Source of the DNA: an uncultured Bacilli bacterium
GTDB taxonomy: Bacteria > Bacillota_I > Bacilli_A > RF39 > UBA660
Length of the DNA: 64,000 nt
Direction: 5' to 3'
Assembly: GCA_934101425.1 (NCBI GenBank)
Contig: CAKOQQ010000001.1
Coordinates: 35,781 to 99,780 of the forward strand
Below, in pieces: positions 7,834-48,506 of this stretch; within the stretch, counting starts at the first letter, position 1; each line of letters begins with the position of its first letter. The notes under the pieces are model-generated. The model was not told the DNA's origin. It did not search any database and saw only the letters and a list, made by a program, of their open reading frames with translations. A program made the position numbers and the translations under genes.

Positions 7834-7966
7834 TTGGTATCCTCCTTTCGCCTATATCAAGTATAGACTTGCTCCGTGTAAAAACCTGATTTATAGTTTG
7901 ATTTTTGTAACAACTCAACCTGGTGTATCAGCAACCTCACACATCCACGCACGCTACACATACAAA
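7834..7966 (-). promoter_or_regulatory. 5' leader of the S10 operon, about 130 nt, comparatively GC-rich and structured. Possibly an L4-type autoregulatory leader.
   Basis: An untranslated stretch between a consensus promoter and rpsJ. It has locally higher GC (ccacgcacgctacac, cctggtgtatcagc) than its AT-rich surroundings. Confidence 0.35.
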
Positions 7967-19827: not shown

Positions 19828-21441
19828 TTATTCACTTAATTCTTTTTCTAATTTACCTTGTTTATCACCAAGTATACTTCTTTGTTCATTTACTTTATTT
19901 ATAGCAGAATTTATAGTATCTATATAAGTTACAAAGTTTGGTGTACCATTTGTTCTTACCCCAAGAGCTGATGATGTAAATGTATATTTTAGAAGTCCTA
20001 ATTCTTTATCAATCGAATTACCTATTTTTAATACTTGGATACTATTAAAAGTAGTTTCATTATATATTCTATCTATTTCATCTTGTAAAGCTACCATTTC
20101 CTCCATGATAGAATTTATATCAGAATTACTATTACCATTAGCAGCTTTAACTGATAATTCATTCATTCTTTGTAATATACTATGAGTTTCTGTTAGTGCT
20201 CTTTCCATTATCTTTATCGCACTAATTAGATTTCGTTTATATGAATCCATATCATCAGGGTTTAATTCTTTGCCTACTAATTTATCTAATATAACCTTAT
20301 TAGCAGTTATTTTATCATCAGTTATATTATTTATATCAATAATAGTTAAGCCTGTTGCACTAAATTTCAAACTAGAATCATTTACTGAATTAGCTATTTC
20401 ATCTAAATTTCTTTTAAATAAAGTATTTGCTTCTATAATAAGTGCTTTTTTATCTATTTCAGTATTAGTAGCCATTAAAGCTTGTACATGTAACTCTTGA
20501 GCTCTAGATAATACTTTAGTATATAAAGCTCTTTTACAAGCCTCATCTGCACATGATTCTAAAGATTTACTATATTCTAATGAATTTTGATATGCTCCAA
20601 ATATACTTCTTTGTTCACTTACTTTATTTATAGCAGATTCTATTCTTTTCATATAATCTTTAAAATCAGGAGTTGTTCTTTGCTTTACATCTAATCCTTC
20701 TGAATTAATAGTATATTTTAATAAATCTACTATTTCATTAAACATATTATCTTCTTGTAAAACTTTTTCATTTTGAAAAGATGTTTCATTATATATTCTA
20801 TCTATTCCATCTTGTAGCTCTATTAGTTCATCCATAATAGAAGCTATATCAGAACTTGTATTAGTATCATTTGCAGCTTTAACTGATAATTCATTCATTT
20901 TTTGTAATATGCCATGAGTTTCTGTTAGTGCTCCTTCAGCAACTATAATTTCACGTAATAATAAATCATTAAAATTGGCACTTGACTTACTAACACAACT
21001 AGCACTAGTAGTAAACTCTTCTATTAAAAATTTATCTTCTTCTATACTATAATAATTACAATATTTATCATTATAAAATACTGCTGACACTAGTAATCTA
21101 TTAGTCTTACGAATATATCCTGTAGTATCATTCAAAGCTTTATCCATACTTACCGTTTCATTTTCTACTGTTACACCTTTAAGTTCTAAAACATTAATTT
21201 TACCTTCTGTTAATGAATAATAACTATCTTTCTCATCACCATTTAAAAAATCATAATTATTTACACTTCTCATTACACTTTGTACAGAAGCTTTAAAAGC
21301 TTCTCTTTTTGAGTCTTCTACAATATTTAATACAGCAGGTACCGCTATTGCTGCAATTATTGCTAGTATTACTATTACTGCGAGTAACTCTATTAGTGTA
21401 AATCCTTTCTTACTTTTATAATTACCTTTTACTTTCTTCAT
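19828..21441 (-). CDS. Type IV pilin-like protein fused to two tandem flagellin D1-like units (pilin-flagellin chimera)
   Basis: The N-terminus MKKVKGNYKSKKGFTLIELLAVIVILAIIAAIAVPAVLNIVEDSKRE is a prepilin signal. The body contains AEGALTETHGILQKMNELSVKAANDTNTSSDIASIMDELIELQDGIDRIYNETSFQNEKVL. This is near-identical to the B. subtilis Hag D1 N-helix (AEGALTETHAILQRVRELVVQAGN...EIDGISNRTEFNGKKLL). It also contains IESAINKVSEQRSIFGAYQNSLEYS, matching the Hag D1 C-helix (AINQVSSQRAKLGAVQNRLEHT). A second unit follows (ALTETHSILQRMNELSVKAANGNSNSDINSIMEEMVALQDEIDRIYNETTFN; INSAINKVNEQRSILGDKQ). The flagellin D0 termini are absent. Confidence 0.85.
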   Translation of the reverse strand: MKKVKGNYKSKKGFTLIELLAVIVILAIIAAIAVPAVLNIVEDSKREAFKASVQSVMRSVNNYDFLNGDEKDSYYSLTEGKINVLELKGVTVENETVSMDKALNDTTGYIRKTNRLLVSAVFYNDKYCNYYSIEEDKFLIEEFTTSASCVSKSSANFNDLLLREIIVAEGALTETHGILQKMNELSVKAANDTNTSSDIASIMDELIELQDGIDRIYNETSFQNEKVLQEDNMFNEIVDLLKYTINSEGLDVKQRTTPDFKDYMKRIESAINKVSEQRSIFGAYQNSLEYSKSLESCADEACKRALYTKVLSRAQELHVQALMATNTEIDKKALIIEANTLFKRNLDEIANSVNDSSLKFSATGLTIIDINNITDDKITANKVILDKLVGKELNPDDMDSYKRNLISAIKIMERALTETHSILQRMNELSVKAANGNSNSDINSIMEEMVALQDEIDRIYNETTFNSIQVLKIGNSIDKELGLLKYTFTSSALGVRTNGTPNFVTYIDTINSAINKVNEQRSILGDKQGKLEKELSE

Positions 21442-21502
21442 AATATCCCTTACTCTCTACTATAACAAATATAGCATATTTTAAACAAAAAAGGAAGACC
21501 AA

Positions 21503-21751
21503 TTAGTCTTCCATAAGTCCTACATATTCAAATATGGTTTGTGCTAAATCTAAGTCTGTAACTGCTTCTACAACTTTTACACCATCATTTAAGAATTCAT
21601 GTAATAGTTCGTATGAATCTGTTACTTCTTTTGCATCATCAGTTGTTTTTACACATACATAATAATTTTCATCTTCATATATAGCTTGTCTTAATATTAA
21701 ATATTTTTCACCATTGCCTAGTGTCATTACTTGATTAATTCTATTTTCCAT
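21503..21751 (-). CDS. Small acidic protein, possibly DUF1292 (YrzB-like)
   Basis: 82 aa. The pattern VMTLGNGEKYLILRQAIYEDENYYVCVKT, followed by an acidic C-terminus, resembles YrzB family proteins. Confidence 0.35.
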   Translation of the reverse strand: MENRINQVMTLGNGEKYLILRQAIYEDENYYVCVKTTDDAKEVTDSYELLHEFLNDGVKVVEAVTDLDLAQTIFEYVGLMED

Positions 21752-21759
21752 AAACTCTC

Positions 21760-24666
21760 CTATCTAGTTCTTCCACCAGTAGTATTTTCATTTACTTCTT
21801 CTGGAGGAGTTAATCCTAATGCTGCATAGAAGTTATTAGCATCATCTAATGAAATACTACTATCCATACTATTTTCTGATTGTACTTCTACAGGTGCTGG
21901 TGGTTCTACTGGCAATTCATAAATAGGTTCACTGCCAGCATGCCCAACTGGAACAAATTCTTCTTTTATAAGTTCATCATTTTCATTAACTTTTGAATCT
22001 TTTGATTCTTCAGGAGTTTTATTTACGTCATCATATGAAATTCCTAATGATTCATAGAAATCTTTAACATCATCTTCTGAAATTCCACTATCTAATTTAT
22101 TTTCACTTGAACTTGGATTTCCATTTGGATTATTTTTATCAACTGTAACATTTACTTGATTTCCATTTTTTTCTGCATCAATTATAGAATCTCCATAATT
22201 TGCATCTATATTACCATTATCATTATATACATATTCTCCACTACCATTTATTATAGATTCACCTGGATTTAATATAATTTCACTTAAATCTGGTGTAACT
22301 GGAGTTGGATCCGGAGTTACAGGTGTTGGATCTGGTGTAACTGGAGTTGGGTCCGGAGTTACAGGCGTTGGATCCGGTGTAACTGGAGTTGGATCTGGTG
22401 TAACTGGAGTTGGATCTGGTGTAACTGGAGTTGGATCCGGAGTTACAGGTGTTGGATCTGGTGTAACTGGAGTTGGGTCCGGAGTTACAGGCGTTGGATC
22501 CGGTGTAACTGGAGTTGGGTCTGGAGTTACAGGTGTTGGATCAGTATTTGATGGTGTAGAAGGTGTAGTTGGAGTCTTATCAGGAGTTGTTTTATCTGTC
22601 TTTGTTGGTGTTTCAGTATTAGTATTATTTTTTTCTTCTTCTAAATCATCAAAGTTAAATGTAGGCATTTCTACTTCATCTACTATGCCAGTAGTTGGAG
22701 CATCACTTATATTTCTAGTATTTGCATCACAACCTTTTAATCCTACTAAAAGCCCTGCTACTACTAATCCTCCAGCAGCAATTTGTTTCTTATGTTTTTT
22801 AACCCATTCTAATGCTTCTTTACCTTTTTCTCTCATTTTTTTACCAAGGTCTTTTAAAGCAACTATTACGCCTTTCTTTTCAGCGTCATTTTTTAATTCG
22901 TTAGATGCTGGTTCAAAAGCAACAACTGGAACTACTGTTTTACCTTTATCTTTTTCAGGTTCTACTACTGGAGCAACTGGTACTACTGTAGTTTTTTCTT
23001 CCTTTTCTTCTTCTTTAGTTTCTTCAGCAGCTGGAACAAGAATATTTTTAGGAATTTCAACCTTAAGTAATTCTTTACCATCTGGTCCAAAAATTACTAT
23101 AAAGTTTCTTCCATCTTTATCTTGGTTAACAACACCATTTAATGGTGTTGCACCTGTACCAAGTACAAATGGAACTGCTGTTTTATCTTTTTCTTCAGGT
23201 TCTACTACTGGAGCAACTGGTGTCACTGGAGTTTCTTCTTTAGCTTTTTCTTCAGCTTCTTTCTTTTCTGCTTCTTTTTTAGCTTTTATAGAAGCATCTA
23301 AATCACCAACTATATGATCTATAGTTTCAGAAACATTGAATTCAATAAATGCTAATCTTGATTTAGTAGCTGCTATACCTGCAACTAATTCATCTCTTTC
23401 AATTCTATCTAATCTTTGTTGTGATTTATTTATTTTCTTAGCATCTTCAGCTATTTCTTTATTTATTTTTTCTATTTCTGTTTTTAATGGTTTTGTTAAT
23501 TCTCTTAATCTATCAATATTACCACTTAACATGCCTTTTTCACTTCTTAAAGTATGCATTGTAGTCATATTTCTAGTAATTTCTTGATTTTTTCTTTCAA
23601 TTTCAGCTCTTAGGTGTTTTCTCATTGGATGGTTTTGACTAGGTAGACCATCCATTTCTTTTTGTCTTTGTTCAATTATTCTTTGAGCTGATATATTTGC
23701 AGCTTCTAACTTACGAACTTCATTATTAATTTCTGCAATTCTAGCTCCATTAGCTTTAATTTCATCAGTATAACTATCTAAGTCATTTTGTTTAGATTCT
23801 TTTATTTCAGTTAATCTAGCACCTAAAACACCACGATAATTATCTTCATTTGATAATTTTTCTTCTAATTCAGCTAATCTGGGTTCATATTTAGCTAATG
23901 CATCTTCTAGTTGTATTCTTTCTTCACTTCTAGCTGCTGCATCTCTAAGTAAGAATTGTTTAGGTAATCTATCTCTATATTCTTCTAACTTAGCCATTAC
24001 AACTTCTTCACTAATGTTACCTCTTTCAACATCAGTAATTAAATCATTTAATGAAGTTGCAAAATTATATTCAGCTAACATAGATTCAGTACTAGCATTC
24101 TTAATTTCAGTATTTAATCTAGTTATTTCAGCTCTATCAGCATCTTTTAATGCTTCAATATCAACTGTTGCACTACCTGTAGTAGCTTCTTCTTGTTCTT
24201 TTATTGCTTCTTCAAGTTCATGTATGTTAGCATTTAATTCTTCTAAGTCGCTATTTCTTTTAGCAGCTCTTCTTTCTAATCTTTGAATATTAGAATCTAA
24301 AGTAGTAAGTAAAGCTTGATCATTATATTGTTCAGCTAATTCTCTATTTTTTCTTTCTTGTTCTAATCTTCTATCGATACCAATAATATCAGCTGCAAGT
24401 CTATCACTTCTAGCAATCATATCTTCTAAGTCTACTTTATTTTGTTCAACACTATTGTCATATAAAGCAACTCTACCAGTTCTATAATTTTCATCATTTT
24501 TTAATTTTTCTTCTAATTCGCTAATTCTTCTTTCAGCACGTTCAGTAACTCTTCTTGCTTGATCAAATCTTTTAGCTTGTTCACTAATAGTTACTTCATC
24601 TAATCCGTCAATAGGTAATTGACTTTTTAAATCTCTTAGACTTTTTAATATTTCTTCTCTTTCCAT
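21760..24666 (-). CDS. Large membrane protein with four parts. There is an N-terminal coiled coil of about 470 aa, then a single transmembrane segment, then a PT-rich linker of 14 tandem DPTPVTP repeats, and a C-terminal region.
   Basis: 968 aa with no signal peptide. The first ~470 aa is a heptad-rich R/E/L/A/D-rich sequence. The hydrophobic segment is IAAGGLVVAGLLVGL. The tandem repeat is (DPTPVTP)x14. Two C-terminal motifs have the pattern DDxxxFYxxLG(I/L). Confidence 0.6.
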   Translation of the reverse strand: MEREEILKSLRDLKSQLPIDGLDEVTISEQAKRFDQARRVTERAERRISELEEKLKNDENYRTGRVALYDNSVEQNKVDLEDMIARSDRLAADIIGIDRRLEQERKNRELAEQYNDQALLTTLDSNIQRLERRAAKRNSDLEELNANIHELEEAIKEQEEATTGSATVDIEALKDADRAEITRLNTEIKNASTESMLAEYNFATSLNDLITDVERGNISEEVVMAKLEEYRDRLPKQFLLRDAAARSEERIQLEDALAKYEPRLAELEEKLSNEDNYRGVLGARLTEIKESKQNDLDSYTDEIKANGARIAEINNEVRKLEAANISAQRIIEQRQKEMDGLPSQNHPMRKHLRAEIERKNQEITRNMTTMHTLRSEKGMLSGNIDRLRELTKPLKTEIEKINKEIAEDAKKINKSQQRLDRIERDELVAGIAATKSRLAFIEFNVSETIDHIVGDLDASIKAKKEAEKKEAEEKAKEETPVTPVAPVVEPEEKDKTAVPFVLGTGATPLNGVVNQDKDGRNFIVIFGPDGKELLKVEIPKNILVPAAEETKEEEKEEKTTVVPVAPVVEPEKDKGKTVVPVVAFEPASNELKNDAEKKGVIVALKDLGKKMREKGKEALEWVKKHKKQIAAGGLVVAGLLVGLKGCDANTRNISDAPTTGIVDEVEMPTFNFDDLEEEKNNTNTETPTKTDKTTPDKTPTTPSTPSNTDPTPVTPDPTPVTPDPTPVTPDPTPVTPDPTPVTPDPTPVTPDPTPVTPDPTPVTPDPTPVTPDPTPVTPDPTPVTPDPTPVTPDLSEIILNPGESIINGSGEYVYNDNGNIDANYGDSIIDAEKNGNQVNVTVDKNNPNGNPSSSENKLDSGISEDDVKDFYESLGISYDDVNKTPEESKDSKVNENDELIKEEFVPVGHAGSEPIYELPVEPPAPVEVQSENSMDSSISLDDANNFYAALGLTPPEEVNENTTGGRTR
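22292..22542. repeat. Coding tandem repeat with a 21-nt unit (42-nt super-unit), about 12 copies, encoding DPTPVTP
   Basis: ggtgtaactggagttggatcc / ggagttacaggtgttggatct alternate on the plus strand within CDS 21760..24666. Confidence 0.85.
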
Positions 24667-24680
24667 TCTTTACCTCCTCT

Positions 24681-26048
24681 TTATTTTCTATTACAGTATT
24701 TGAATATTACTTCAACCTTTAATTCTTCATTATCTTCAATATCTTTTAAAGATTTAACATCATATTCAAGTTCTTCTAAACTTTTTAACATTTCATTTTT
24801 CTTTAATGCTTCTTTATTTACTTTAACCCATTCACTTGAAGTAGAAGGCATTTTGTCGTCTTTTTCTAACTTATAGAATCTATATACTGTAGCTTTAGTA
24901 GATTCATCTTTAATATATCCACTTGCTGGTGCAGATAAATAATATGTATTTTCATCACTAGCACTTGTTTTATTTGATGGATAATATGATCTATATGATT
25001 TAGTATTCTTATACCATTGATATGCAGTTACTGTTTTACTTTGACATCTAATGCCATTAAATCTATAATCTGCGCTATTCTTTTCTGATTCTTTACATAC
25101 TGTTGTAGTCCAATTACTCCAGTTTTCACATACTGTTCCGTCTTGTACTACTGTGTGCCCATCACAAGTTGCCACTATACCATTTGTTCCTTGTGAAGTA
25201 TCTACTTCTAAGAATGAACCTGTAGTTCTATTTGGACAATATACTGTAGATAAAACATTTTGTCCTGGTAGTCTAGAATCTTTACATACAAATCTCCATT
25301 TTGCTACTACTTGTTTTCTATAATAAGTAATATTTTTAGAATTTCCTTTATTTGGATAACCACTTGGTGCAGTTGCACTATAAGCGCCATTATTCCAGTA
25401 TGAAGTTCCACCAGCTACTTCTTTATAATATTTGTAACCAGTAGATCCTTTGTCATCTGTTAAATTATATTCACTATTTGGAGCAGTTTTATAATATTCC
25501 TTAACTTTGTTAATATCAGTTTCTTTGTTAGGATAATATACTTTAGTTCCTTTTTCTAATCTAGAAGCTATGAAACTAAATTCTACATTTGATGAATCAA
25601 CTTCTAAATCTGATTCTTTGCCTGTAACACATCCGCCAAAAGTAGTTTCTTCGCTAGTACAATTTAAAACTGGTGTATATTGATAATTTCCACTTTCTAA
25701 TTTACTAACTTTTACATAAGTACTTGCATCAGCACAATCACTAAATGAATCTGGATACTTAAGTAAATTTTCACTCTTTAAATCTTTTAAAGTAACAGTT
25801 ACTTGATCACCATAAGATTCAGGTAACTTATCTGCATAATTCTTATAGTATTCTTTAGCAGCTTTTACTAAATCATCGTATCTATCTACATTAGATTTTC
25901 CACAACCTTTTAGTAAAAGTAATATAATAATAACTGCAACAATTACTAGTATACCAAAAAAGATTCCCTTTACTATTTTCTTTCTATTCTCTTCTTTTTC
26001 TTCGTCTAATTCTTCACTTTCGTATTCATACGAATCGTTTTTAAACAT
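24681..26048 (-). CDS. Type II membrane protein with an acidic cytoplasmic tail and a Cys-rich extracellular domain, hypothetical
   Basis: 455 aa. An N-terminal E/D-rich segment (ESEELDEEKEENRKK) is followed by one transmembrane helix (IFFGILVIVAVIIILLLL). The ectodomain has about 16 Cys and many Tyr, Asn and Thr. A 14-nt gap separates it from the upstream large gene. Confidence 0.45.
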   Translation of the reverse strand: MFKNDSYEYESEELDEEKEENRKKIVKGIFFGILVIVAVIIILLLLKGCGKSNVDRYDDLVKAAKEYYKNYADKLPESYGDQVTVTLKDLKSENLLKYPDSFSDCADASTYVKVSKLESGNYQYTPVLNCTSEETTFGGCVTGKESDLEVDSSNVEFSFIASRLEKGTKVYYPNKETDINKVKEYYKTAPNSEYNLTDDKGSTGYKYYKEVAGGTSYWNNGAYSATAPSGYPNKGNSKNITYYRKQVVAKWRFVCKDSRLPGQNVLSTVYCPNRTTGSFLEVDTSQGTNGIVATCDGHTVVQDGTVCENWSNWTTTVCKESEKNSADYRFNGIRCQSKTVTAYQWYKNTKSYRSYYPSNKTSASDENTYYLSAPASGYIKDESTKATVYRFYKLEKDDKMPSTSSEWVKVNKEALKKNEMLKSLEELEYDVKSLKDIEDNEELKVEVIFKYCNRK

Positions 26049-26122
26049 AAAATCACCATTCCCTCAAGTATAATATACCATTTTTATTATAATTTATCAA
26101 GAAAAAAGAAGATTTTATCTTC

Positions 26123-27370
26123 TTATTTTACATAATTTACAAATTCAGCAAATGTTGTTGTAGAAGCTATTGTATATCTTGGTATTCTGTATAAATCCGT
26201 TCGCTTTTGGTATGCAACACCTTTTACACCTGCAGCCCCTATAAATGCCATCCTATATCCAGCTTTAATTAATTCTTGTTTTGAATAATCATTATATTCA
26301 TAAAATGGATAGCAGAATACTTTAGAGCCGCCTAAAATTTCGCTACTTTTCTTTAAATCTTCTTGAATAGTTGCACTAGGCAAGCACTTAATTCCGCCGC
26401 CTTGACCACCAGGACAAACACCAGTAACATGCATACCATGGCTATGTGAGTGTAATTCTAAATAATCACTTTTAAAATTTTCTGGTTTATATGTATTTGT
26501 AATTAAAAACATAGTTGCATGAACTTTATACTTTTCAAGAATTGGAATTGCTCTAAGTCCTAAATATCCATCATCAATAGTTATAACGGCACTTTTTTCT
26601 GGAATTCTAATTTTACCAGTTAAAAATAATTCTAAATCATTCATTTTTAAAGTAAAATATCCGTTTTCACTTAGATAACCCATATGAGATGAGAACTGGC
26701 TTTCAGTATGACAAATGATATTTGTACATACTTCTGTTTTAGGATCATAAATCGCATGATAAACTAAAGTTCTAATCCACGTTCTTGTCTTAGCTTCAGT
26801 ATTGATTTTATCGACTATAGTAGCATCATCTTTTAAGATATACATTAGTTTATTATTATATTCAACATAATACTTATCATCATCAAGAATAATAATCGGT
26901 AAACTAACTCCTTCATTTATACTATATGTTAACTTTCCATCAATATATAAATTCGTAGTATCTTTAGTAACTGCATTTACGTTAAATACAACATAATTTT
27001 TATACCAGTCATCAACTTCAGTAAGACTATCTATTTTCTTTATATCTTTATAATCTATATACCAATCCTTATTTTTAATTTTAAAATATTTAGTGTTTTC
27101 ATCTATTTCAGTTTCATCTAATTCTAATTCATCATTTACTTTACCTATTATATTACCATTAGCGTCATATAAATTAACCAAATCATTAGTTTTAACATAT
27201 TTACTATAACAATTTTGTATTTCTGCTTTTTTAGCTAATCTTTCATTTTCATTATATATTTTTTCTTTTTTTAGTTTTTCTCTACTATAAAACGAATACC
27301 CAAATATTCCTGCTATAATAATAACCAATATTATAAACATAGCTCTTATCTGTTTCATAAAATCACCCAT
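26123..27370 (-). CDS. Membrane-anchored polysaccharide deacetylase (CE4/NodB family)
   Basis: An N-terminal transmembrane helix and CE4 motifs: ITIDDGY, HATMFLI, LELHSHSHGMH, YRIPRY. Confidence 0.75.
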   Translation of the reverse strand: MGDFMKQIRAMFIILVIIIAGIFGYSFYSREKLKKEKIYNENERLAKKAEIQNCYSKYVKTNDLVNLYDANGNIIGKVNDELELDETEIDENTKYFKIKNKDWYIDYKDIKKIDSLTEVDDWYKNYVVFNVNAVTKDTTNLYIDGKLTYSINEGVSLPIIILDDDKYYVEYNNKLMYILKDDATIVDKINTEAKTRTWIRTLVYHAIYDPKTEVCTNIICHTESQFSSHMGYLSENGYFTLKMNDLELFLTGKIRIPEKSAVITIDDGYLGLRAIPILEKYKVHATMFLITNTYKPENFKSDYLELHSHSHGMHVTGVCPGGQGGGIKCLPSATIQEDLKKSSEILGGSKVFCYPFYEYNDYSKQELIKAGYRMAFIGAAGVKGVAYQKRTDLYRIPRYTIASTTTFAEFVNYVK

Positions 27371-27407: not shown

Positions 27408-28505
27408 TTATGCTTCATTTAAACTTTTTGTTAATTTAATTTTAATTTCTTTAAATTTAGAATCTCTATAACATTTAACAGTAATAGTGTCTCCTACATC
27501 GTATTTATATAATAAATATCTAAAATGAGCACTACTTTTTACTTTAACATTATCAACAGATGCTATAACATCTCCTTTTTTAAGTCCTGCAATATCTGCT
27601 GGGCTACCATCTTCTACTGATGTTATAACCACTCCATTTTCTACTTCATCATCTATTTTTATGCCTTCTCTATATAAATTCCATTCATCAGTAATTTCAG
27701 TCATAGTTACGCCTAAGTATGGTCTTACTATAGCTTCTCCCTTTTCAAGCCTATCAGTTAATCCCATAACTATTTCAATAGGAATAGCAAAACCCATACC
27801 TTCTACATTTTCATCCACTATTTTTAGAGAATTAACACCAATTACCTCTCCATTTATATTACATAAAGGTCCTCCACTATTTCCTGGAGAAATAGCTGCA
27901 TCAGTTTGAATTACTTCCATAATAACACTGGTATTATTTGATTTAACAGAAACTTCTCTTGCAGTACCTGATAAAATACCTTTTGTAACAGTACCAATAT
28001 ATTCTATGCCAAGTGGTGATCCTACTGTAAATAATGTATCACCAAGTTTAAGAGAAGTACTATCTCCAATACTTGCAACACCTTCTACACCATCAACATC
28101 TATTGCTAAAACAGCTATATCAGCATATTCATCACTACCTAAAACTTTAGCTTCTAAAGTAGCACCTGATGTACTAGTTACCATAACACTAGTTGCACCA
28201 TTTATTACATGATGATTAGTTATAATATAACCATATTTAGAATCTTTTTTATATACAAAACCTGTTCCGCTTGATGATAAAGTTTTATTTTTATATGAAG
28301 CTATATAATATACAGCATCATATATTTTTTCAATACCAGGTTGTATAGTATCATTTTCAGTAACAGAAACTGTTTTTACTTCTTCCTTTTTTACTATTTC
28401 AGTGTTTTCACCTTTCAAATAATTTTTATATATGAAAGCGCCACCGAAAAAACCTATAAATAAAGTTACTAAGACAGTAACAATATATACTATCTTTTGT
28501 CTCAT
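27408..28505 (-). CDS. htrA: HtrA/DegP-family serine protease with a PDZ domain
   Basis: Transmembrane anchor, then a trypsin-like domain with catalytic His (ITNHHVI), Asp and Ser (GNSGGPL), then a C-terminal PDZ (GVVITSVEDGSPADIAGLKKGDVI). Confidence 0.85.
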   Translation of the reverse strand: MRQKIVYIVTVLVTLFIGFFGGAFIYKNYLKGENTEIVKKEEVKTVSVTENDTIQPGIEKIYDAVYYIASYKNKTLSSSGTGFVYKKDSKYGYIITNHHVINGATSVMVTSTSGATLEAKVLGSDEYADIAVLAIDVDGVEGVASIGDSTSLKLGDTLFTVGSPLGIEYIGTVTKGILSGTAREVSVKSNNTSVIMEVIQTDAAISPGNSGGPLCNINGEVIGVNSLKIVDENVEGMGFAIPIEIVMGLTDRLEKGEAIVRPYLGVTMTEITDEWNLYREGIKIDDEVENGVVITSVEDGSPADIAGLKKGDVIASVDNVKVKSSAHFRYLLYKYDVGDTITVKCYRDSKFKEIKIKLTKSLNEA

Positions 28506-28513: not shown

Positions 28514-29443
28514 CTATATTTCTTTTATATCTTCGAAGTTATTAGGGAAACCTAATTTCATAAGTAAAGTTTCTTTAGATAAAGTAAGTATTTTACTTTC
28601 AAGTATCTTCATTTCGTAATTAAACTCATTAAAAAAATCATTAAAATCTGATTTAGTTAATAATTCCTTTAACATTATAATAACTGAGAATAAATCATTT
28701 TTACCATATATATACTCATCATCTATTTTATTTATCTTTAATATTTCATGAATTTTATTATCAGGAATAGACTTTTGAGTTCTATTAGAATATAACATAT
28801 CTTCATGAGCACATAAATTTCTATAGTTTGCAAGTATACTTAAATATATTTTCATAGTATCAACTGAGACACCAAAATAAGCAGCTATTTCAGTTTGATC
28901 TTCTATTGTTAATATGCTATAAAATTCAGATACAATACCTAAAGAAAGTACTTTTACTAAGATCCATAAAGGTATATAACCGTAATTATTTATATAGTGC
29001 AAAGTAGCTGAATGTTTAGTTCCATTAACTCTTATTTGTCTTTTCATTTTATTTAATACATCTTTTACTTGTCTACTCTTTAATGGATCTTGATTAAAAT
29101 TCTTAGGATTTAAATAATCTCTATCTTTAAACCCATACTTTTTAGAAAGTTGATAACTCATAATAGACTTAATATTGTTTTCAATAACTAAAATGTTTTT
29201 AAAAAATATATTTCTTATTCTTCTATCAAAAGTAAAAACTCCATAAAGTTCATCAAAAGTAGTACCATCTATATATTTATCTTCTCTAGTATTTTGCATA
29301 AATAAATGTCTATATCCATTTAAGAAAAAATAATTTTCACGAAGTAAAATTTCTTTTGCTCTATCATAATCTTCTACGATTAACCCTCTTGACTCTAAAA
29401 TATCAATTTGTTCATTAATTGTCTTAAATATTTTGCTCTTCAT
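28514..29443 (-). CDS. Abi_2 family abortive-infection protein (AbiD/AbiF-like)
   Basis: The N-terminus (FKTINEQIDILESRGLIVEDYDRAKEILLRENYFFLNGY) matches the Abi_2 N-terminal region, which has the form IDEQIELLKSRGL...YYRLSGY. 309 aa. Confidence 0.65.
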   Translation of the reverse strand: MKSKIFKTINEQIDILESRGLIVEDYDRAKEILLRENYFFLNGYRHLFMQNTREDKYIDGTTFDELYGVFTFDRRIRNIFFKNILVIENNIKSIMSYQLSKKYGFKDRDYLNPKNFNQDPLKSRQVKDVLNKMKRQIRVNGTKHSATLHYINNYGYIPLWILVKVLSLGIVSEFYSILTIEDQTEIAAYFGVSVDTMKIYLSILANYRNLCAHEDMLYSNRTQKSIPDNKIHEILKINKIDDEYIYGKNDLFSVIIMLKELLTKSDFNDFFNEFNYEMKILESKILTLSKETLLMKLGFPNNFEDIKEI

Positions 29444-29467: not shown

Positions 29468-30106
29468 TTATTTTAAATATTCTTTTATACCATTACATAA
29501 GCTTTTACTAACTTTTTCTTGATATTTACTATTTGTAAGCAAATATCTTTCATTTTCATTAGATAAAAACCCAACCTCTACAAGTATTCCTGGTATTTTT
29601 ATATTTTTTAGCAAATATAAATTATTTTTCTTTTTATAAGTTCTATTGCCATTTAAATTTTTAATGTTTTTATCCATTATAGAAGCTAAAACTTCATTAG
29701 TAGAATTATTATCATCATAAAATATTTGTACTCCATGCCAAGAAGTACCATATGAATTTAAATGAATAGAAATAAATAAATCAGCATTTGAATTATTTAT
29801 AGCTCGCACACGATTATTTAAATCACTCTTTTTGTGATTATTAGTACTAATAGATAAATCTATATCATCATATCTAGTTAAATAAACAATCGCCCCATTA
29901 TTTTCTAATTCTTTTTTTAACTTTAAGGCTATAGATAAATTAATATCTTTTTCATATATATCTTTATAAGTTGCACCAGGATCTATTCCACCATGCCCTG
30001 GATCAATATATATTACTTTACCTATTAAATCTAAATTTTCTCCTTTCACATAACTAATAATAGATATATTTAGTATGAGCAATACTAAAGCAAATAATTT
30101 TTTCAT
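29468..30106 (-). CDS. cwlD: N-acetylmuramoyl-L-alanine amidase (Amidase_3 family, CwlD-like)
   Basis: Signal peptide, then the motif IYIDPGHGGIDPGA, and a 212-aa size typical of CwlD. Confidence 0.7.
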   Translation of the reverse strand: MKKLFALVLLILNISIISYVKGENLDLIGKVIYIDPGHGGIDPGATYKDIYEKDINLSIALKLKKELENNGAIVYLTRYDDIDLSISTNNHKKSDLNNRVRAINNSNADLFISIHLNSYGTSWHGVQIFYDDNNSTNEVLASIMDKNIKNLNGNRTYKKKNNLYLLKNIKIPGILVEVGFLSNENERYLLTNSKYQEKVSKSLCNGIKEYLK

Positions 30107-32382: not shown

Positions 32383-32412
32383 TTTACAAAAAAAGATAGA
32401 ATAATCTATCTT
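32383..32412 (-). terminator. Rho-independent terminator of pilin paralog A
   Basis: AAGATAGA-ataa-TCTATCTT followed by TTTTTTTG on the minus strand. It overlaps the stop codon. Confidence 0.6.
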
Positions 32413-33647
32413 AATTTATCTCTACTTACTTCTATAACTGGGCGCACACCGGGGCCGCTTGCATTAGCCACGTTGTTGTCGTGGCTCAAGATGCCAATGT
32501 AGTAAACGGTAAAAGCGGTGTTAAAATTGCCGGAATATGCAGTATTTGTCCAGTATGCACCGGCACTAGAATCAGCTACATTACATCCATATGTTGTACA
32601 TTCTCTTGTATTATCAAATAGCCATGCATATCTGTTTGTTCCTGCTGCTCCTTTGTATTCTGTATTTGAATTTGTATGGAAGTAATAACGGTTATTATTC
32701 CAATTTGGATATCCTGTTATTTTTGCTATTTCACTTGCTTCTATTAGTCTAGCTGTACTTTTAACAGCACCATTCCAAGAAGCTATATCATTTTCTAATT
32801 GTGTTTTTACTTCAACTGGACCATTGGCATTTTTTCCACTTGATGCCCATGCAACTTTTGCTGTTGTATTATGATCTAGTAGTAAATTAACTGTATTATT
32901 TCCTTCATCATTAAATGCATACCATTTCATACATCCATTACTTTTACTAGTATTTGATGTAGCTTCTTCTTTAGAACAAACACTATTACTATTTGGATTA
33001 AAATATATAGCTGTTCCATTTGCATATTTATTATTTGATACATATACATTTCTATATACTGTCGAGCTTATTCCTTTTGTATCTGTAGCTGTATATTTTA
33101 CTTGATATATTCCTTCAGCACTCATCACTAAATTACTTTTATCTATAACTATATTTGATATGGCATTACCATCAGAATCAGTTGCAGAGGCACCAAGTTC
33201 AGTATAAGTAGCATTTAAATTATAAGTAACCATTGGTGATCCATTAAAATTTATTATAGGAGACTTTTCTCCATCTCTAGTAGTAATAGTACTTTCTACT
33301 ATATCATAAGTATAAGTTTCACCTTTTTTCTTTATTTCAATTGTAAGAGCATCATCAAAATATTTATCATCATTAGGATTTTTTACTTCTTTTTTTATTA
33401 GTCCTGAACTTTTTAATTGACCTAATGTTATTTTAACAACAAATTCTTCTTTTCTTGGAAGTAAGCCTGAATTAGCACTTGCATAAGCCTGAACTGCTTC
33501 TATTATTGTACTTATTTGTGTATTATAAGCTTTTTCTTTTGATTGCTTTATATATTTATTTACTGATGGTACTGCAATTACTAGTATTAGCGACAATATA
33601 ACTATTACTGCTAGTAATTCTACTAATGTAAAACCTTTCTTTTTCAT
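32406..33647 (-). CDS. Pilin-like protein (class III signal) with a DUF5011 Ig-like domain and a C-terminal DUF1566/lectin-like domain. Tandem paralog A.
   Basis: The N-terminus is MKKKGFTLVELLAVIVILSLILVIAVPSVNKYIKQSKEKAY. The Ig-like segment is GSPMVTYNLNATYTELGASATDSDGNAI...YQVKYTATDTKGISSTVYRNVYV. The C-terminal domain (MKWYAF...ARLIEASEIAKITGYPNW...YWTNTAY...GVRPVIEVS) resembles DUF1566. Confidence 0.7.
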   Translation of the reverse strand: MKKKGFTLVELLAVIVILSLILVIAVPSVNKYIKQSKEKAYNTQISTIIEAVQAYASANSGLLPRKEEFVVKITLGQLKSSGLIKKEVKNPNDDKYFDDALTIEIKKKGETYTYDIVESTITTRDGEKSPIINFNGSPMVTYNLNATYTELGASATDSDGNAISNIVIDKSNLVMSAEGIYQVKYTATDTKGISSTVYRNVYVSNNKYANGTAIYFNPNSNSVCSKEEATSNTSKSNGCMKWYAFNDEGNNTVNLLLDHNTTAKVAWASSGKNANGPVEVKTQLENDIASWNGAVKSTARLIEASEIAKITGYPNWNNNRYYFHTNSNTEYKGAAGTNRYAWLFDNTRECTTYGCNVADSSAGAYWTNTAYSGNFNTAFTVYYIGILSHDNNVANASGPGVRPVIEVSRDKLR

Positions 33648-33669
33648 ATTATTCCTACTTTCTACATTA

Positions 33670-33698
33670 ATTATATTTATTTATCTTTTATAAGTCAA
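33670..33698 (-). promoter_or_regulatory. Perfect consensus sigma-A promoter TTGACT-17-TATAAT for paralog A
   Basis: Minus strand: -35 TTGACT (plus 33693..33698), a 17-nt spacer, and -10 TATAAT (plus 33670..33675). It lies directly downstream of paralog B's terminator. Confidence 0.6.
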
Positions 33699-33708
33699 GA
33701 AATAAAAA

Positions 33709-33728
33709 AAGATAGAATATTCTATCTT
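33709..33728 (-). terminator. Rho-independent terminator of pilin paralog B
   Basis: Perfect 20-bp palindrome AAGATAGAATATTCTATCTT followed by a run of 7 T. Confidence 0.6.
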
Positions 33729-35002
33729 AATTTACTTTTTAATACGGTAATAACTGGGCGAACACCGAGGAAGTCTGAATCAGCCACGTCGGTGCTGTAG
33801 AAGGAGCCCTCGTTGGACACGAACCAAGCGAAGCCAGAACTGCCGGAATATGCAGTATTTGTCCAGTATCCATAAGTACTAGAATCTGCTACATTACATC
33901 CATATGTTGTACATTTATATGTATTATCAAATAGCCATGCATATTTGTTTGTTCCTGCTGCTCCTTTATATTCTGTTTGTGTATTATCATGAAAATAATA
34001 CCCGTTATTATTCCAATTTGGATATCCTGTTATAGTAGCTATTTCACTTGCTTCTATTAGTCTAGGGTTTAAACTACTTTTCCAAGCTTTTGTATCGCTT
34101 TTTAGTTGTTTTAATGCTGTAATTGGGCCTTTACTATTATTTCCATAACTCCCATACTCCGCTTCTGTTCCACCAGCTTCAATATAATCTTCTTTTGATG
34201 CCCACGCAACTTCATCTGTCGTATTATGGTCTAGTATTAACTTTATATAAAGACTTCCATCATCTAAAAAACTATACCATTTCATACACCCATTACTTTT
34301 ACTTGTATTTATACTAGCTTCTTCTTTAGAACAAACACTATTACTGTTAGGATTAAAATATATAGTTGTTCCATTTGCATATTTATCTTTTATTACATAT
34401 ACATTTCTATATACTGTTGAGCTTATTCCTTTTGTATCTGTTACTGTATACTTTACTTGATATATTCCTTCAGTACTCATAACTAAATTACTTTTATTTA
34501 TAACTATATTTGTTAAAGCTTTTCCATCAGAATCAGTTGCTGAGGCACCTAAATCATTATATGTATCATTTAAATTATAAATAACCATTGGTGATCCATT
34601 TAAAGTTATCTTAGGAGCTTCTTCTCCATCTCTAGTAGTAATAGTGTTTTCTACTACTTCATATATATAATTTTCTTTATTTTTCTTTATTTTAATTGTA
34701 AGTGCATCATCAAAGTATTTATCATCATTAGGATTTTTTACTTCTTCTTTTATTAACCCTGCACTTTTTAATTGACCTAATGTTATTTTAACAGATATAT
34801 TTTCTCTATTTGGAAGTAACTCAAGATTTGTGCTTGCATAAGCCTGTGCTGCTTCTATTATTGTACTTATTTGTGCATCATATGCTTTTTCTTTTGATTG
34901 CTTTATATATTTATTTACTGATGGTACTGCAATTACTAGTACTAGTGATAATATAATTATTACTGCTAATAATTCTACTAATGTGAAACCTTTCTTTTTC
35001 AT
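33722..35002 (-). CDS. Pilin-like protein with DUF5011 Ig-like and DUF1566-like domains. Tandem paralog B.
   Basis: 426 aa. It has the same N-terminal prepilin sequence and the same C-terminal GVRPVITV...KLR ending as paralogs A and C. Confidence 0.7.
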   Translation of the reverse strand: MKKKGFTLVELLAVIIILSLVLVIAVPSVNKYIKQSKEKAYDAQISTIIEAAQAYASTNLELLPNRENISVKITLGQLKSAGLIKEEVKNPNDDKYFDDALTIKIKKNKENYIYEVVENTITTRDGEEAPKITLNGSPMVIYNLNDTYNDLGASATDSDGKALTNIVINKSNLVMSTEGIYQVKYTVTDTKGISSTVYRNVYVIKDKYANGTTIYFNPNSNSVCSKEEASINTSKSNGCMKWYSFLDDGSLYIKLILDHNTTDEVAWASKEDYIEAGGTEAEYGSYGNNSKGPITALKQLKSDTKAWKSSLNPRLIEASEIATITGYPNWNNNGYYFHDNTQTEYKGAAGTNKYAWLFDNTYKCTTYGCNVADSSTYGYWTNTAYSGSSGFAWFVSNEGSFYSTDVADSDFLGVRPVITVLKSKLR

Positions 35003-35021
35003 ATTATTCCTACTTTCTACA

Positions 35022-35050
35022 TTAATTATATTTATTTATCTTTTATAAGT
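35022..35050 (-). promoter_or_regulatory. Perfect consensus sigma-A promoter TTGACT-17-TATAAT for paralog B
   Basis: -35 at plus 35045..35050, a 17-nt spacer, and -10 at plus 35022..35027. Confidence 0.6.
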
Positions 35051-35062
35051 CAAGAAATAAAA

Positions 35063-35082
35063 AAGATAGAATATTCTATCTT
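35063..35082 (-). terminator. Rho-independent terminator of pilin paralog C
   Basis: The same AAGATAGAATATTCTATCTT palindrome followed by a T-run. Confidence 0.6.
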
Positions 35083-36332
35083 AATATACTTCTTGATACA
35101 GTGATAACTGGGCGCACACCGTAATTTGAACGGACAACTTGATAATAACGTAATACTCCATCAGAATCAATTATCCAAGCATAATCATTAAATCTAGTAT
35201 ATGCAGTGTTTGTCCAATATCCAAAAGTACTAGAATCAGCTACATTACATCCATATGTTGTACAAGAGCTTGTATTATCAAATAGCCATGCATATTTGTT
35301 TGTTCCAACACTTCCTGTATATTCTGTTGTACTATTATTATGCAAATAATAATAATCTGCACCAGCTGTCCAACTAGGATTATCAGTTATTGTAGCTATT
35401 TCACTTGCTTCTATTAGTCTAGCTGTACTTTTAATAGCACTATTCCAAGAAGCTATATCACTATTTAATTGTGTTAATACTTCTTGTGGGCCATCTTCAT
35501 TAGTACCACTAGATGCCCATGCAACTGTTGCTGTCGTATTATGATCTAATAATAAAGTCATTTTTTCACTAGTTCCATTATCTAATATACTATACCATTT
35601 CATACAACCTGTTTTAGTGCCTGTTGTGCTTACTGCTTCAGCACTAGTACATTTAGCATTTGTAACTGGGTTATAATAGTATACTCGACCACTTACTAAA
35701 TTAGATACTGCACCATCTCTTACTACTACATTTCTATATATTGTTGTAGTAGTTCCATATGAATCAGTTGCTGTATATTTAATATAATATACACCTTTTA
35801 CACTCATATCTAGTGATGATGAATCAACATTAACATCACTTATTACTTTTCCATTATAGTCATAGGCACTAGAGCCTTCTTCTTGATAAGAAGAATTTAT
35901 ACTATAATAAACTACTGTATTTCCTGTCAATTTTATTGAAGGACTATTATTAGTAGTTTCTCTTACCTTTATAGTATCCTCATCTATTTCATATGTATAT
36001 CTATTACCTTTTTTCTTTATAATAAAAGTTAATGCATCATCAAAGTATTTATCATTATAAGGATTTTTTGTATCATTTTTTACAATACCTTCTATCTTTA
36101 ATTGACCTAATGTTATTTTTATTATTTCATCATCGTTTTCTGGCAATATTTCATTATTCATGTTGGCATATGATTCTACAGCATCTAATAATTCACTTAT
36201 TTGAACTTTATATGCTTTTTCTTTTGATTGTTTTATATATCTATTTACTGATGGGACAGCAATTACTAATATTATTGATAATATTACTATTACAGCGAGT
36301 AACTCTACTAACGTAAATCCCTTTTTATTCAT
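35076..36332 (-). CDS. Pilin-like protein with DUF5011 Ig-like and DUF1566-like domains. Tandem paralog C.
   Basis: 418 aa. The N-terminus is MNKKGFTLVELLAVIVILSIILVIAVPSVNRYIKQSKEKAY. It shares the C-terminal domain and ends GVRPVITVSRSILR. Confidence 0.7.
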   Translation of the reverse strand: MNKKGFTLVELLAVIVILSIILVIAVPSVNRYIKQSKEKAYKVQISELLDAVESYANMNNEILPENDDEIIKITLGQLKIEGIVKNDTKNPYNDKYFDDALTFIIKKKGNRYTYEIDEDTIKVRETTNNSPSIKLTGNTVVYYSINSSYQEEGSSAYDYNGKVISDVNVDSSSLDMSVKGVYYIKYTATDSYGTTTTIYRNVVVRDGAVSNLVSGRVYYYNPVTNAKCTSAEAVSTTGTKTGCMKWYSILDNGTSEKMTLLLDHNTTATVAWASSGTNEDGPQEVLTQLNSDIASWNSAIKSTARLIEASEIATITDNPSWTAGADYYYLHNNSTTEYTGSVGTNKYAWLFDNTSSCTTYGCNVADSSTFGYWTNTAYTRFNDYAWIIDSDGVLRYYQVVRSNYGVRPVITVSRSILR

Positions 36333-36495: not shown

Positions 36496-36930
36496 ATGTG
36501 TAATAATAATGAGACAAATAATACTTCATGCATATCTGAAATTTTAGCTGTTATATGTCTTTTACAACAAAACGCTAGTTGCTGTGGTGACACTTGCCTA
36601 GATACTTGTGATAGAGGTTTCTTAGGTTGTGGAACTACTAGTTTAGGTTGTAATACAAGACCTATAATTCTATATACGACTGCAGGAAACGGAACACCAT
36701 TTTCTATGCCAACCACTAAAACAGCATTAACTTGTGATGGTGCTACTTGCTCCAGTGTATGCAGAATTGAAAAAATAGATGGAAATTGTGCAACATTTAG
36801 AGTATTACAAGAAAATACAGATCAAACATCAGCTTATCCTTATGAAGCTACAAACTCATTTTTTACAATGAATTTAAATTGCTTATGTGCAATTAGATGC
36901 TTAAATGATACTTACGTAGAATGCATATAA
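36496..36930 (+). CDS. cotZ: CotY/CotZ-family spore coat or exosporium protein (Cys-rich)
   Basis: 144 aa. DGNCATFRVL and LNCLCAIRCLND parallel B. subtilis CotZ (HGSCATLSLL and LDCFCAINCLNP). Confidence 0.7.
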   Translation: MCNNNETNNTSCISEILAVICLLQQNASCCGDTCLDTCDRGFLGCGTTSLGCNTRPIILYTTAGNGTPFSMPTTKTALTCDGATCSSVCRIEKIDGNCATFRVLQENTDQTSAYPYEATNSFFTMNLNCLCAIRCLNDTYVECI

Positions 36931-38574: not shown

Positions 38575-39474
38575 CTATATTTTAGATAATACTGTTACTA
38601 ATCCTAAACTTGGTAAGTCAAGTGTCATATACCCATACTCACTATCAAACTCAGTTAATTCAATTAATGATACTTCTTCAGTATTAGGATTTATTAGCAT
38701 AACTAATAAATTATTCATTTCTTCTACTTTAGCGGCTTCACATGTAAATGTTAAAGTTATATTTTTATCATGAGTAAATGATAAAGTATTGCCTTCTTTT
38801 ATAGCTATATCATAAATAGGTGTTAAAGCATCATAATCTTCTACATTTACTTTTACTCCTGTAGTAGTTACTAAATTAGTTGTGTTTTTATTTAAAGCAT
38901 TAAGTAATTCTTCAAATGTAACTATTTCATCATCACTATTAAATCTTTCTACAGCCTTACTTACTAAAGTACTAGAATATCTTTTAGGATTAGATATATA
39001 TACTTTAATATTACTATTTCCAACTAAAATATTTTCTATGATAAAGCCTGCTCTACCATCTGTAAGTACTGGATTATCTTCTATTACTGGTGTTTCTATA
39101 GTGCATTCACTTTCATCTGTTTTAGTGCTTGTAATAGTTCCATTAGATGATACTTCAATGCAGTATCCTGATATATACATTTTACCACTTGCATTACCGT
39201 TAGTATCATAACTAAGTAATCCTTTTTTAGCTTGTTCTCCATCATATTTTAATGTGTTAGTGCTTAAATCAACATTAGAATTTGGCTTATTATCCATTTT
39301 ATTTTGCATATAATGTTTTTTTGCAGTGTCTACTATATTTCTTGCACTTGCTTCTGCTGCACTTTTCTTTGAGTCTTCTATAATATTTAATACTGCAGGG
39401 GTTGCAATTAGTGCTATTACTGCTAATATTACTATAACCGCTAATAGCTCTATTAATGTAAATCCTTTTTTCAT
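38575..39474 (-). CDS. Type IV pilin-like protein, paralog of 8027 and 44825
   Basis: MKKGFTLIELLAVIVILAVIALIATPAVLNIIEDSKK plus the shared ~125-aa N-terminal domain. I trimmed the start to the ATG that follows a GGAAG RBS. It appears co-transcribed with the upstream DUF368-like gene. Confidence 0.8.
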   Translation of the reverse strand: MKKGFTLIELLAVIVILAVIALIATPAVLNIIEDSKKSAAEASARNIVDTAKKHYMQNKMDNKPNSNVDLSTNTLKYDGEQAKKGLLSYDTNGNASGKMYISGYCIEVSSNGTITSTKTDESECTIETPVIEDNPVLTDGRAGFIIENILVGNSNIKVYISNPKRYSSTLVSKAVERFNSDDEIVTFEELLNALNKNTTNLVTTTGVKVNVEDYDALTPIYDIAIKEGNTLSFTHDKNITLTFTCEAAKVEEMNNLLVMLINPNTEEVSLIELTEFDSEYGYMTLDLPSLGLVTVLSKI

Positions 39475-39529
39475 ATAATCTTCCTTTTCACAAAAATAAT
39501 TATAACATACTATCAAATATTTTTAAATT

Positions 39530-48470: not shown

Positions 48471-48506
48471 ATTTACCTCTCTTAAACAAAAAAATAAACC
48501 ATAAGT

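Follow-up and report, generated by a model that had tools for sequence, protein, structure and literature searches.

A three-gene operon for a predicted envelope-spanning coiled-coil protein and two partners in uncultured Bacilli

Our analysis of a 64,000-nucleotide stretch of contig CAKOQQ010000001.1 from an uncultured Bacilli bacterium (hereafter the window) points to three adjacent genes, termed B, A and C in the order of their transcription, the products of which may build a constitutively expressed structural assembly that is specific to a lineage of uncultured small-genome gut Bacilli and spans their cell envelope. We favour this reading tentatively and hold it to be nearly, if not quite, probable. 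The ensemble is without a characterised counterpart, and its individual parts are of known kinds. Protein A is predicted to join a long cytoplasmic coiled coil to a proline-rich extracellular spacer through one transmembrane helix, B to carry a pilin-derived domain outside the membrane, and C to be a small cytoplasmic protein.

In the arrangement that we propose, the coiled-coil rods of A, probably dimeric or of higher oligomeric state, would provide a platform in the cytoplasm onto which C might dock. The disordered spacer of A would thread through the peptidoglycan layer, and the conserved tip beyond it would contact the wall or the ectodomain of B. The three proteins would thus form one complex coupling cytoplasmic position or structure to the wall.

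Operon structure and conservation

The three open reading frames (ORFs) were found where the initial annotation of this DNA had placed a protein of 968 amino acids, one of 455 and a small one. All of them lie on the minus strand, in the order B-A-C, with intergenic gaps of 14 nucleotides (nt) between B and A and 8 nt between A and C. Because transcription runs from high to low coordinates, upstream and downstream had been inverted in that annotation: the 455-residue gene is indeed 14 nt from gene A, yet upstream of it, the DUF1292-like gene lies downstream, and the polysaccharide deacetylase and HtrA genes said to follow the operon precede it. A sigma-A-type promoter with an extended -10 element was detected just upstream of B. 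Of 28 loci, 25 had the pattern TTGnnn-N13-15-TGnTAnnnT at 33-69 nt 5' of the start of B, compared with 3.2 % of background segments of 130 nt. A terminator-like hairpin followed by a T-run (TTTTTTGTTT) marks the end of gene C, and the terminator scan found a second such site after the HtrA gene. Given this promoter before B and the terminators after C and after HtrA, B-A-C looks like a transcription unit of its own. We therefore regard it, on these predicted signals, as one operon with its own conserved housekeeping-type promoter, and the proximity of the deacetylase and HtrA genes as synteny within the lineage rather than co-transcription.

The DNA around relatives of B was collected from two metagenome contexts and 26 GTDB genomes. 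On every contig that was long enough, B was followed within 20 nt or less by a gene for 558-1030 amino acids and this, again within 20 nt or less, by a gene for 78-96 amino acids, an arrangement present in both metagenome contexts and in about 20 of the GTDB genomes. A relative of C was found by tblastn downstream of B in 22 loci, and an orthologue of 78-96 amino acids stood behind the A gene in 19. Genes A and B, the co-conservation of which the initial annotation had put forward for checking, were strictly co-conserved in the loci surveyed, and the conserved unit is a triad that includes the DUF1292-like gene as third cistron rather than the pair originally described.

The usual gene order in the relatives was cwlD-B-A-C-abiD-htrA; 12 distinct genome loci had the full six-gene run, and in 18 distinct related ones B directly followed cwlD. 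In the window the triad is placed differently: it follows htrA and the deacetylase gene, that is, it has moved relative to cwlD, abiD and htrA. In deeper branches (L003 and L024-L030) B-A-C alone were kept together and all the flanking genes were different. As the triad remains intact in changed surroundings, it appears to move as a unit. Its hosts are all uncultured Bacilli known from metagenome-assembled genomes (MAGs), labelled Bacilli, Bacillales, Bacillota, Tenericutes, Mycoplasmatota, 'Acholeplasma sp. CAG:878' or 'Clostridium sp. CAG:1000'; a few genomes labelled Muribaculaceae were taken as binning errors.

Predicted architecture of the three proteins

The cytoplasmic half of A is modelled as two duplicated antiparallel coiled-coil hairpins (features and coordinates are collected in Table 1). 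Residues 1-476 were all-helical in the AlphaFold2 model, with helices of about 55-105 residues, and a home-made periodicity score placed the heptad signal 8.5 standard deviations above shuffled sequences (z 8.5), in agreement with the coiled coil of roughly 470 residues proposed earlier. BLASTP aligned residues 1-215 with residues 216-480 (E 2e-11); both copies carry LEEKLxN(D/E)(E/D)NYR, and the first module contains the motif LEEKLKNDENYR. The composition of this region, described from the outset as atypical, differed clearly from that of the window proteome in Arg (9.7 vs 3.1 %), Glu (14.7 vs 6.5 %) and Ala (9.9 vs 4.9 %), and Gln was also enriched relative to the other ORFs of the window. 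The model was computed from an alignment of 8 sequences and reached a mean predicted local distance difference test (pLDDT) of 58.6, with blocks within the helices up to 95; the alignment was shallow because a word-index search with the coiled-coil profile of A returned almost exclusively the same species. Behind the second hairpin a small cytoplasmic beta module was predicted. The homologue P0036 has lost it in a deletion that lies between two PVAPVVEPE repeats (A residues about 495-560, 23000-23180), and P0034 and P0035 are shorter by a length that would fit the same loss. This would be a second length polymorphism of the protein.

The proposed transmembrane segment of A, IAAGGLVVAGLLVGL, was borderline in hydropathy (Kyte-Doolittle maximum 1.62). 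It is preceded by the basic stretch KKHKKQ, the aligned segments of the orthologues were stronger (1.8-2.6), and AlphaFold2 placed it within a helix of residues 589-643 (626-643 in the feature assignment), so that the segment is retained. That A and B are bitopic with the N-terminus inside and the C-terminus outside is our working assumption, suggested by hydropathy, by basic residues before each transmembrane helix, and by CW_7 or pilin-like domains located C-terminal to the helix.

Beyond the membrane, residues about 644-795 of A form a spacer that had no secondary structure in the AlphaFold2 model and contains the tandem array of DPTPVTP units. The exact count of units was 12 (residues 709-792), fewer than the 14 of the initial annotation, which had rightly described the underlying 21/42-nt DNA repeat. 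At the DNA level the 12 units, identical as peptides, fall into 7 synonymous variants, and the GC content of the repeat was 0.518 vs 0.266 for the window. The expected variation in length was found in 37 near-identical metagenomic copies of A (83-97 % identity), in which the number of units ranged from 3 to 12; these counts come from short-read metagenome assemblies, where repeat collapse may explain part of the differences. One of the near-identical copies, from a MAG labelled 'Bacillales bacterium', carries no annotation beyond that of a hypothetical protein. In all complete A orthologues except one, the region after the transmembrane helix consisted of 50-71 % Pro, Thr, Ser, Glu, Asp and Asn, and the length of the spacer differs between species and between strains.

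The spacer is followed by an extracellular beta module, the start of which (x-(P/E)-G-(E/D)) aligned across the orthologues, and by the two DDxxxFYxxLG motifs noticed earlier, beginning at residues 865 and 941, the first of which is kept in P0038 and P0039. Tip and C-terminus were conserved across the orthologues, and the spacer, rich in Pro/Thr or in Pro/Glu, was not; besides the beta module, the tip has one or two short amphipathic helices. The last residue was Lys or Arg in 21 of 22 complete orthologues, commonly within GG[KR][ST]R; in the window this end comprises residues 964-968 (21763-21777), and a gene for a PDZ-containing HtrA is syntenic in most of the genomes. The positional orthologues of A (558-1030 amino acids, about 20 loci) aligned at 16-26 % identity to the window protein, with BLASTP E between their cytoplasmic regions and that of window A as low as 4e-16. 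They share a common architecture of a long helical N-terminal region, a basic stretch and a single transmembrane helix, then 130-380 residues of low complexity rich in Pro, Thr, Glu, Asp and Asn, the beta module, an acidic amphipathic helix and a basic C-terminus.

A wall link for A had initially been guessed from neighbouring genes. It now goes beyond that guess, since 3 of 19 A orthologues carry the wall-binding domain CW_7 (PF08230; best E 1e-19) directly behind the transmembrane helix: P0038 and P0039, which are more distant homologues (57-60 % identity), and the orthologue of L011. Neither A nor B contains LPxTG, and the C-terminus of A is hydrophilic and ends in ...GGRTR, which does not correspond to the sortase-anchored type.

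Protein B begins with an acidic cytoplasmic tail of 27 residues before a strong transmembrane helix (Kyte-Doolittle 3.4), both in keeping with the initial annotation; its cysteines numbered 11, with 10 outside the membrane anchor, instead of about 16. The AlphaFold2 model of B had a pLDDT of 86.8. The B family comprised 42 word-index hits, with 28-67 % identity of the wider family to window B, and an exhaustive HMMER search with the family profile returned 1298 representatives at E<=1e-3, of which 64 reached E<=1e-30. The weaker hits mostly covered profile positions about 14-130 only, i.e., the anchor helix and the first ectodomain. Among ten sampled partial hits, seven passed the threshold of N_methyl (PF07963), and some contained Laminin_G or TSP1 domains. 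Aligned by hhalign, the B family matched P0184 over B residues 40-132 (probability 97.5 %, E 7.5e-12), and BLASTP matched B to the 138-amino-acid pilin P0170 (E 7e-8). B itself showed no N_methyl hit, prepilin leader or G/FTLxE motif, and the family alignment had no conserved Gly or Glu5 equivalent. As its domain is homologous to that of prepilin-type proteins and the prepilin motif is absent, B is best described from its sequence as an ordinary membrane anchor at the N-terminus that bears a pilin-derived domain and, after it, a beta-rich region particular to the B family. No solved fold was matched beyond the membrane-proximal domain. This distal region contains an internal repeat, YYPxN..x(V)xEYYxxAPxxxY...D....YKxYK, at residues 171-215 and 355-400 (window 24850-25540); extra copies occur in the divergent family members P0079 and P0081, and no Pfam repeat family matched it.

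A further feature shared by A and B is the sequence L-K-G-C directly after the transmembrane helix (A 643-646, 22729-22740; B 46-49, 25902-25913). Both proteins had the juxtamembrane Cys in 12 loci, only one of the two had it in 6, and both lacked it in 3. Lipoprotein processing at this site (lipobox [LVI]-[ASTVI]-[GAS]-C) was rejected, as position -2 is occupied by Lys or Arg and the Cys is absent from six A and six B orthologues, out of 21 each; in A, moreover, the L-K-G-C ends at residue 646, outside any signal peptide. A disulfide between A and B, considered on the basis of Cys co-variation, was unconvincing with 15 concordant vs 6 discordant loci, given the relatedness of the genomes. The juxtamembrane Cys could reflect a disulfide, a relaxed lipobox or coincidence.

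Protein C is the best conserved of the three, with a mean column identity of 46 % in the family alignment. PF06949 (DUF1292) was matched by 8 of 13 C orthologues (best E 6.5e-4), and window C gave no PF06949 hit even at a maximum E-value of 10. For this reason the likeness to DUF1292 noted earlier holds through the orthologues only, and C appears to be a divergent, distant relative rather than a certified member. Its subfamily is distinguished by a strongly conserved N-terminus, MENRINQ..EL.NGKKY.ILKQAIY, and by the fixed place after gene A. The literature searched held no functional information on DUF1292.

Scans of A, B and C against Pfam, NCBIfam, PADLOC and PHROGs yielded nothing but coiled-coil noise: in Pfam and NCBIfam, sub-threshold matches to TACC_C (15.8 bits; cutoff 29.9) and SMC (22 bits; cutoff 729); in PADLOC, weak coiled-coil matches such as LmuB (E 5e-4); in PHROGs, no match better than E 0.007. 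B was without a Pfam or NCBIfam hit. Neither EzrA, DivIVA/GpsB, MapZ, RodZ, RsgI or SpoIIIAH nor other division, morphogenesis, sporulation or anti-sigma families were matched in Pfam or NCBIfam, and these two databases revealed no enzymatic, sensor or regulator domain in the three proteins, next to which no regulator is encoded. No relative of B was found among IMG/VR viral contigs, and PDB sequence searches with B, C and the C-family profile gave no match. The initial statement that no characterised family is recognisable thus stands with respect to Pfam, NCBIfam, PADLOC, PHROGs and PDB, and has to be amended for the prepilin-related domain of B.

Table 1. Positions of the B-A-C operon, of its predicted parts and of neighbouring genes in the window (aa, amino acids; nt, nucleotides; bp, base pairs; TRF, Tandem Repeats Finder).
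Feature	Position	Strand	Details
Gene B	24681..26048	-	455 aa, cistron 1; ORF list; predicted bitopic N-in/C-out membrane protein
Gene A	21760..24666	-	968 aa, cistron 2; ORF list; predicted bitopic N-in/C-out coiled-coil protein
Gene C	21503..21751	-	82 aa, cistron 3; ORF list; DUF1292-like, predicted cytoplasmic
Sigma-A-type promoter of operon	26072..26100	-	TTGATA, 17 nt, TG-extended TATATT; promoter scan
Terminator-like hairpin and T-run at end of gene C	21493..21512	-	8-bp stem, 4 GC pairs, then TTTTTTGTTT; terminator scan
A coiled-coil module 1 (residues 1-214)	24025..24666	-	Predicted antiparallel helical hairpin; AlphaFold2 helices 24-113 and 117-214, block pLDDT up to 93
A coiled-coil module 2 (residues 215-476)	23239..24024	-	Duplicate of module 1; AlphaFold2 helices 236-339, 347-417 and 420-476
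A small cytoplasmic beta module (residues 498-538)	23053..23175	-	AlphaFold2 strands, block pLDDT about 44-69
A transmembrane segment IAAGGLVVAGLLVGL (residues 629-643)	22738..22782	-	Predicted; KKHKKQ inside, LKGC646 outside
A tandem repeat encoding 12 x DPTPVTP (residues 709-792)	22288..22542	-	TRF: period 21, 12.1 copies; period 42, 90 % matches
A conserved extracellular beta module (residues 796-842, LNPGESI...)	22141..22281	-	AlphaFold2 strands, pLDDT 45-62
A first DDxxxFYxxLG motif (residues 865-875)	22042..22074	-	Regular-expression match; modelled helix 864-873
A second DDxxxFYxxLG motif (residues 941-951) and C-terminal end ...NTTGGRTR	21763..21846	-	Regular-expression match; modelled helix 940-949
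B transmembrane helix (residues 28-46)	25911..25967	-	Predicted; modelled helix 14-47; then LKGC49
B membrane-proximal ectodomain (residues about 55-132)	25653..25886	-	Homologous to equivalent domain of prepilin-type proteins
B family-specific beta-rich ectodomain (residues about 150-455)	24684..25601	-	Conserved Cys; two YYPxN...YYxxAP...YKxYK repeats
CwlD-like amidase	29468-30106	-	TIGR02883, 204.7 bits vs cutoff 221.6 (just below equivalog cutoff)
AbiD/Abi_2	28514-29443	-	Pfam/PADLOC; gene separate from triad
HtrA	27408-28505	-	Upstream of operon
Membrane polysaccharide deacetylase	26123-27370	-	Directly upstream of B
Prepilin/flagellin chimera	19828-21441	-	Directly downstream of operon terminator

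Functional readings and surrounding genes

Several points weigh against a structural assembly spanning the envelope. The link between A, B and C would follow from co-transcription and co-conservation alone, and all relatives belong to one clade, so that shared descent rather than selection may explain the synteny. Window A gave no match to CW_7 or to any other recognised wall-binding domain in the Pfam scan, its transmembrane hydrophobicity is borderline, and its model is based on the shallow alignment described above. Proteins for surface display have long coiled coils and proline-rich spacers just as typically, and the strongest conserved neighbour, the spore-cortex gene cwlD, hints at other biology.

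The first of these hints leads to a surface-display or adhesin-like function, in which A would be an anchored stalk pushing a small tip past the wall toward host, mucus, cells or phage, B a co-displayed pilin-derived protein, and the coiled coil a device for anchoring and oligomerisation only, with the repeat tuning reach or evading recognition. The proline-rich, tandemly repeated and strain-variable spacer (3-12 units) would suit such a stalk. The first domain of B is common to many large prepilin-type surface proteins with Ig-like (immunoglobulin-like), Laminin_G and TSP1 domains, and the window is rich in such proteins (six N_methyl ORFs). Sortases have been reported as lacking in the related uncultured orders RFN20 and ML615J-28, so that other anchoring routes are to be expected (PMC10868615). 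However, display has no need of a 470-residue duplicated coiled coil that is homologous across the clade or of the conserved cytoplasmic C, the exposed tip of A is small and without a recognisable adhesin domain, and the differences in copy number, taken from short-read assemblies, may partly be collapse artefacts. On balance we consider display unlikely.

A second alternative assigns the triad to sporulation or germination. As part of the envelope it would work on the spore cortex together with CwlD and the deacetylase, for instance as a scaffold of the forespore or mother-cell membrane. The position of cwlD immediately upstream of B in 18 distinct loci and of the deacetylase gene beside B in the window speaks for it, as do the spore genes of the clade (CotZ-like and CotJB in the window, GPR in L003). 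The neighbourhood ecfA-ecfA'-ecfT-truA-rplM-rpsI...cwlD in L001 presumably mirrors the cwlD region of Bacillus subtilis. Nevertheless, the conserved promoter is of the classical extended -10 type of sigma-A and does not match the sigma-E, sigma-K, sigma-F or sigma-G consensus. The triads of the deeper branches (L003, L024-L030) hold together without cwlD, and no sporulation family was matched in Pfam or NCBIfam. Hence, a sporulation role seems quite unlikely.

It is very doubtful that the triad is an accessory of a type IV filament, with B as an uncleaved, membrane-retained pilin-like subunit and A and C as platform or alignment parts for prepilin-type proteins. A prepilin-type gene does follow the operon in the window, but this neighbour is not conserved and abiD takes its place elsewhere. 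B is without a prepilin leader, G/FTLxE motif or Glu5 equivalent, A is unlike the PilM, PilN, PilO and GspL/GspM families, and no pilus ATPase, platform protein or prepilin peptidase was found near the triad in the window or the surveyed loci. A transmembrane signalling or anti-sigma-like device, the second half of the initial proposal of a scaffold or signalling device, is scarcely credible: the bitopic topology with domains on either side of the membrane is all that recommends it, no sensor, kinase, anti-sigma or regulator domain was detected in A, B or C, and no sigma factor or regulator gene is conserved beside the triad. The scaffold half of that proposal agrees with the predicted bitopic layout of a cytoplasmic coiled coil and an extracellular spacer.

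The structural assembly therefore remains the reading that we prefer. A more specific version of it, that the triad is an unrecognised envelope-organising system which marks or holds a place in the cells of reduced-genome, Mycoplasmatales-related gut Bacilli, be it the division site, a pole or a zone of wall synthesis, is quite unlikely in our estimation. If it were true, it would provide the first functional context for DUF1292 and show how the cytoplasm is tied to the wall in these lineages, of which some have reportedly lost sortases and many enzymes of the wall. The cell biology of the hosts, abundant and uncultured gut Bacilli with small genomes, is almost unknown, and the operon, strongly promoted and kept throughout the clade, is a plausible entry point to the organisation of their wall and surface. 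DUF1292 gains a conserved partner in a coiled-coil membrane protein, the membrane-proximal domain of pilins appears re-used on an ordinary membrane anchor, and the strain-variable proline-rich repeat offers a ready strain marker for metagenomes. Without experiments, what we present is a well-described hypothetical operon and no new mechanism.

Along the minus strand the window reads cwlD-like, AbiD, HtrA, deacetylase, B, A, C and a prepilin/flagellin chimera, then ParA and ParB. The deacetylase gene adjoins the triad in this genome only, among the loci surveyed; its product has an N-terminal membrane anchor, then a domain of about 200 residues without a family, then the catalytic domain. AbiD/Abi_2 was fixed beside htrA, with 57-62 % identity, in 12 distinct loci (L001, L005-L007, L009-L011, L016, L017, L019, L021 and L022), a synteny unusually stable for a defence gene. 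In the chimera of 537 amino acids, a prepilin N-terminal methylation motif (residues 9-33) occurs together with two flagellin N-terminal helical regions (about 165-231 and 402-472) and a Flagellin_C fragment. Five further N_methyl ORFs lie within 32406-36332, 38575-39516 and 44825-45733 (all minus strand), and three of them are paralogues, arranged in tandem, that share a Bact_surface_Ig-like domain. The stretch from 30 to 54 kb yielded no gene for a pilus ATPase, a platform protein or a peptidase. With sortases reported absent from related orders (PMC10868615), these bacteria may use the prepilin motif as a general means of anchoring proteins at the surface.

Along with the CwlD-like gene, the CotZ-like ORF (36496-36930, plus strand) and CotJB (60097-60573, plus strand) of the window and the GPR protease gene of a relative (L003, 3892-4662) suggest that the clade can sporulate. 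A radical S-adenosylmethionine (SAM)/SPASM enzyme (47679-48833, minus strand) adjoins an ORF of 108 amino acids without a family, which could be a peptide-modification pair, and a radical SAM and DUF4130 pair lies at 55775-57735 (plus strand). A SAM riboswitch (54030-54114, minus strand) stands ahead of metK (52866-53957), and an S10 ribosomal-protein leader was located at 7848-7955 (minus strand). Near 55.7 kb there is a switch in gene orientation as well as in GC skew; a replication origin was rejected there, the local genes being for radical SAM, DUF4130 and chaperonin proteins, with no dnaA or dnaN.

Likeness to known systems

At the level of single domains, B residues 55-132 share homology with the domain located behind the N-terminal helix of Firmicute surface proteins of the N_methyl (PF07963) type. 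In contrast to these, B has an acidic tail and an ordinary anchor in place of a cleavable prepilin leader, and its remaining 300 residues are family-specific. C has the size of DUF1292/UPF0473 proteins such as B. subtilis YrzB, to which the 8 of 13 weak PF06949 hits connect its family; it differs in being unmatched in the window and in having a subfamily N-terminus and a fixed place after A. The three A orthologues with one CW_7 repeat outside the membrane recall proteins of the Cpl-7 type, from which window A differs by lacking the repeat. CW_7 normally occurs in phage or bacterial lysins rather than in coiled-coil membrane proteins.

In overall layout, A is closest to MapZ/LocZ of streptococci, reportedly described in 2014 by Fleurie and colleagues and by Holeckova and colleagues. 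Both are lineage-restricted and have, as predicted for A, a bitopic N-in/C-out topology with a cytoplasmic N-terminal domain, one transmembrane helix, a flexible extracellular linker of low complexity and a wall-binding end. They differ in that A shows no sequence or profile similarity to MapZ/LocZ, has as its cytoplasmic part the 470-residue duplicated coiled coil, about three times longer, and is accompanied by two obligatory operon partners, B and C; for A there is no evidence of FtsZ binding or phosphorylation. We regard the resemblance of the triad to MapZ, and equally to RodZ and EzrA, as an analogy of layout only, without homology. Within these bounds, EzrA and GpsB, the latter of about 100 amino acids, offer the parallel of a membrane-anchored helical-repeat or coiled-coil scaffold on the cytoplasmic face combined with a small cytoplasmic adaptor, as A and C may be, and RodZ, likewise a morphogenetic scaffold of Firmicutes, has a proline-rich extracellular segment, as does A.

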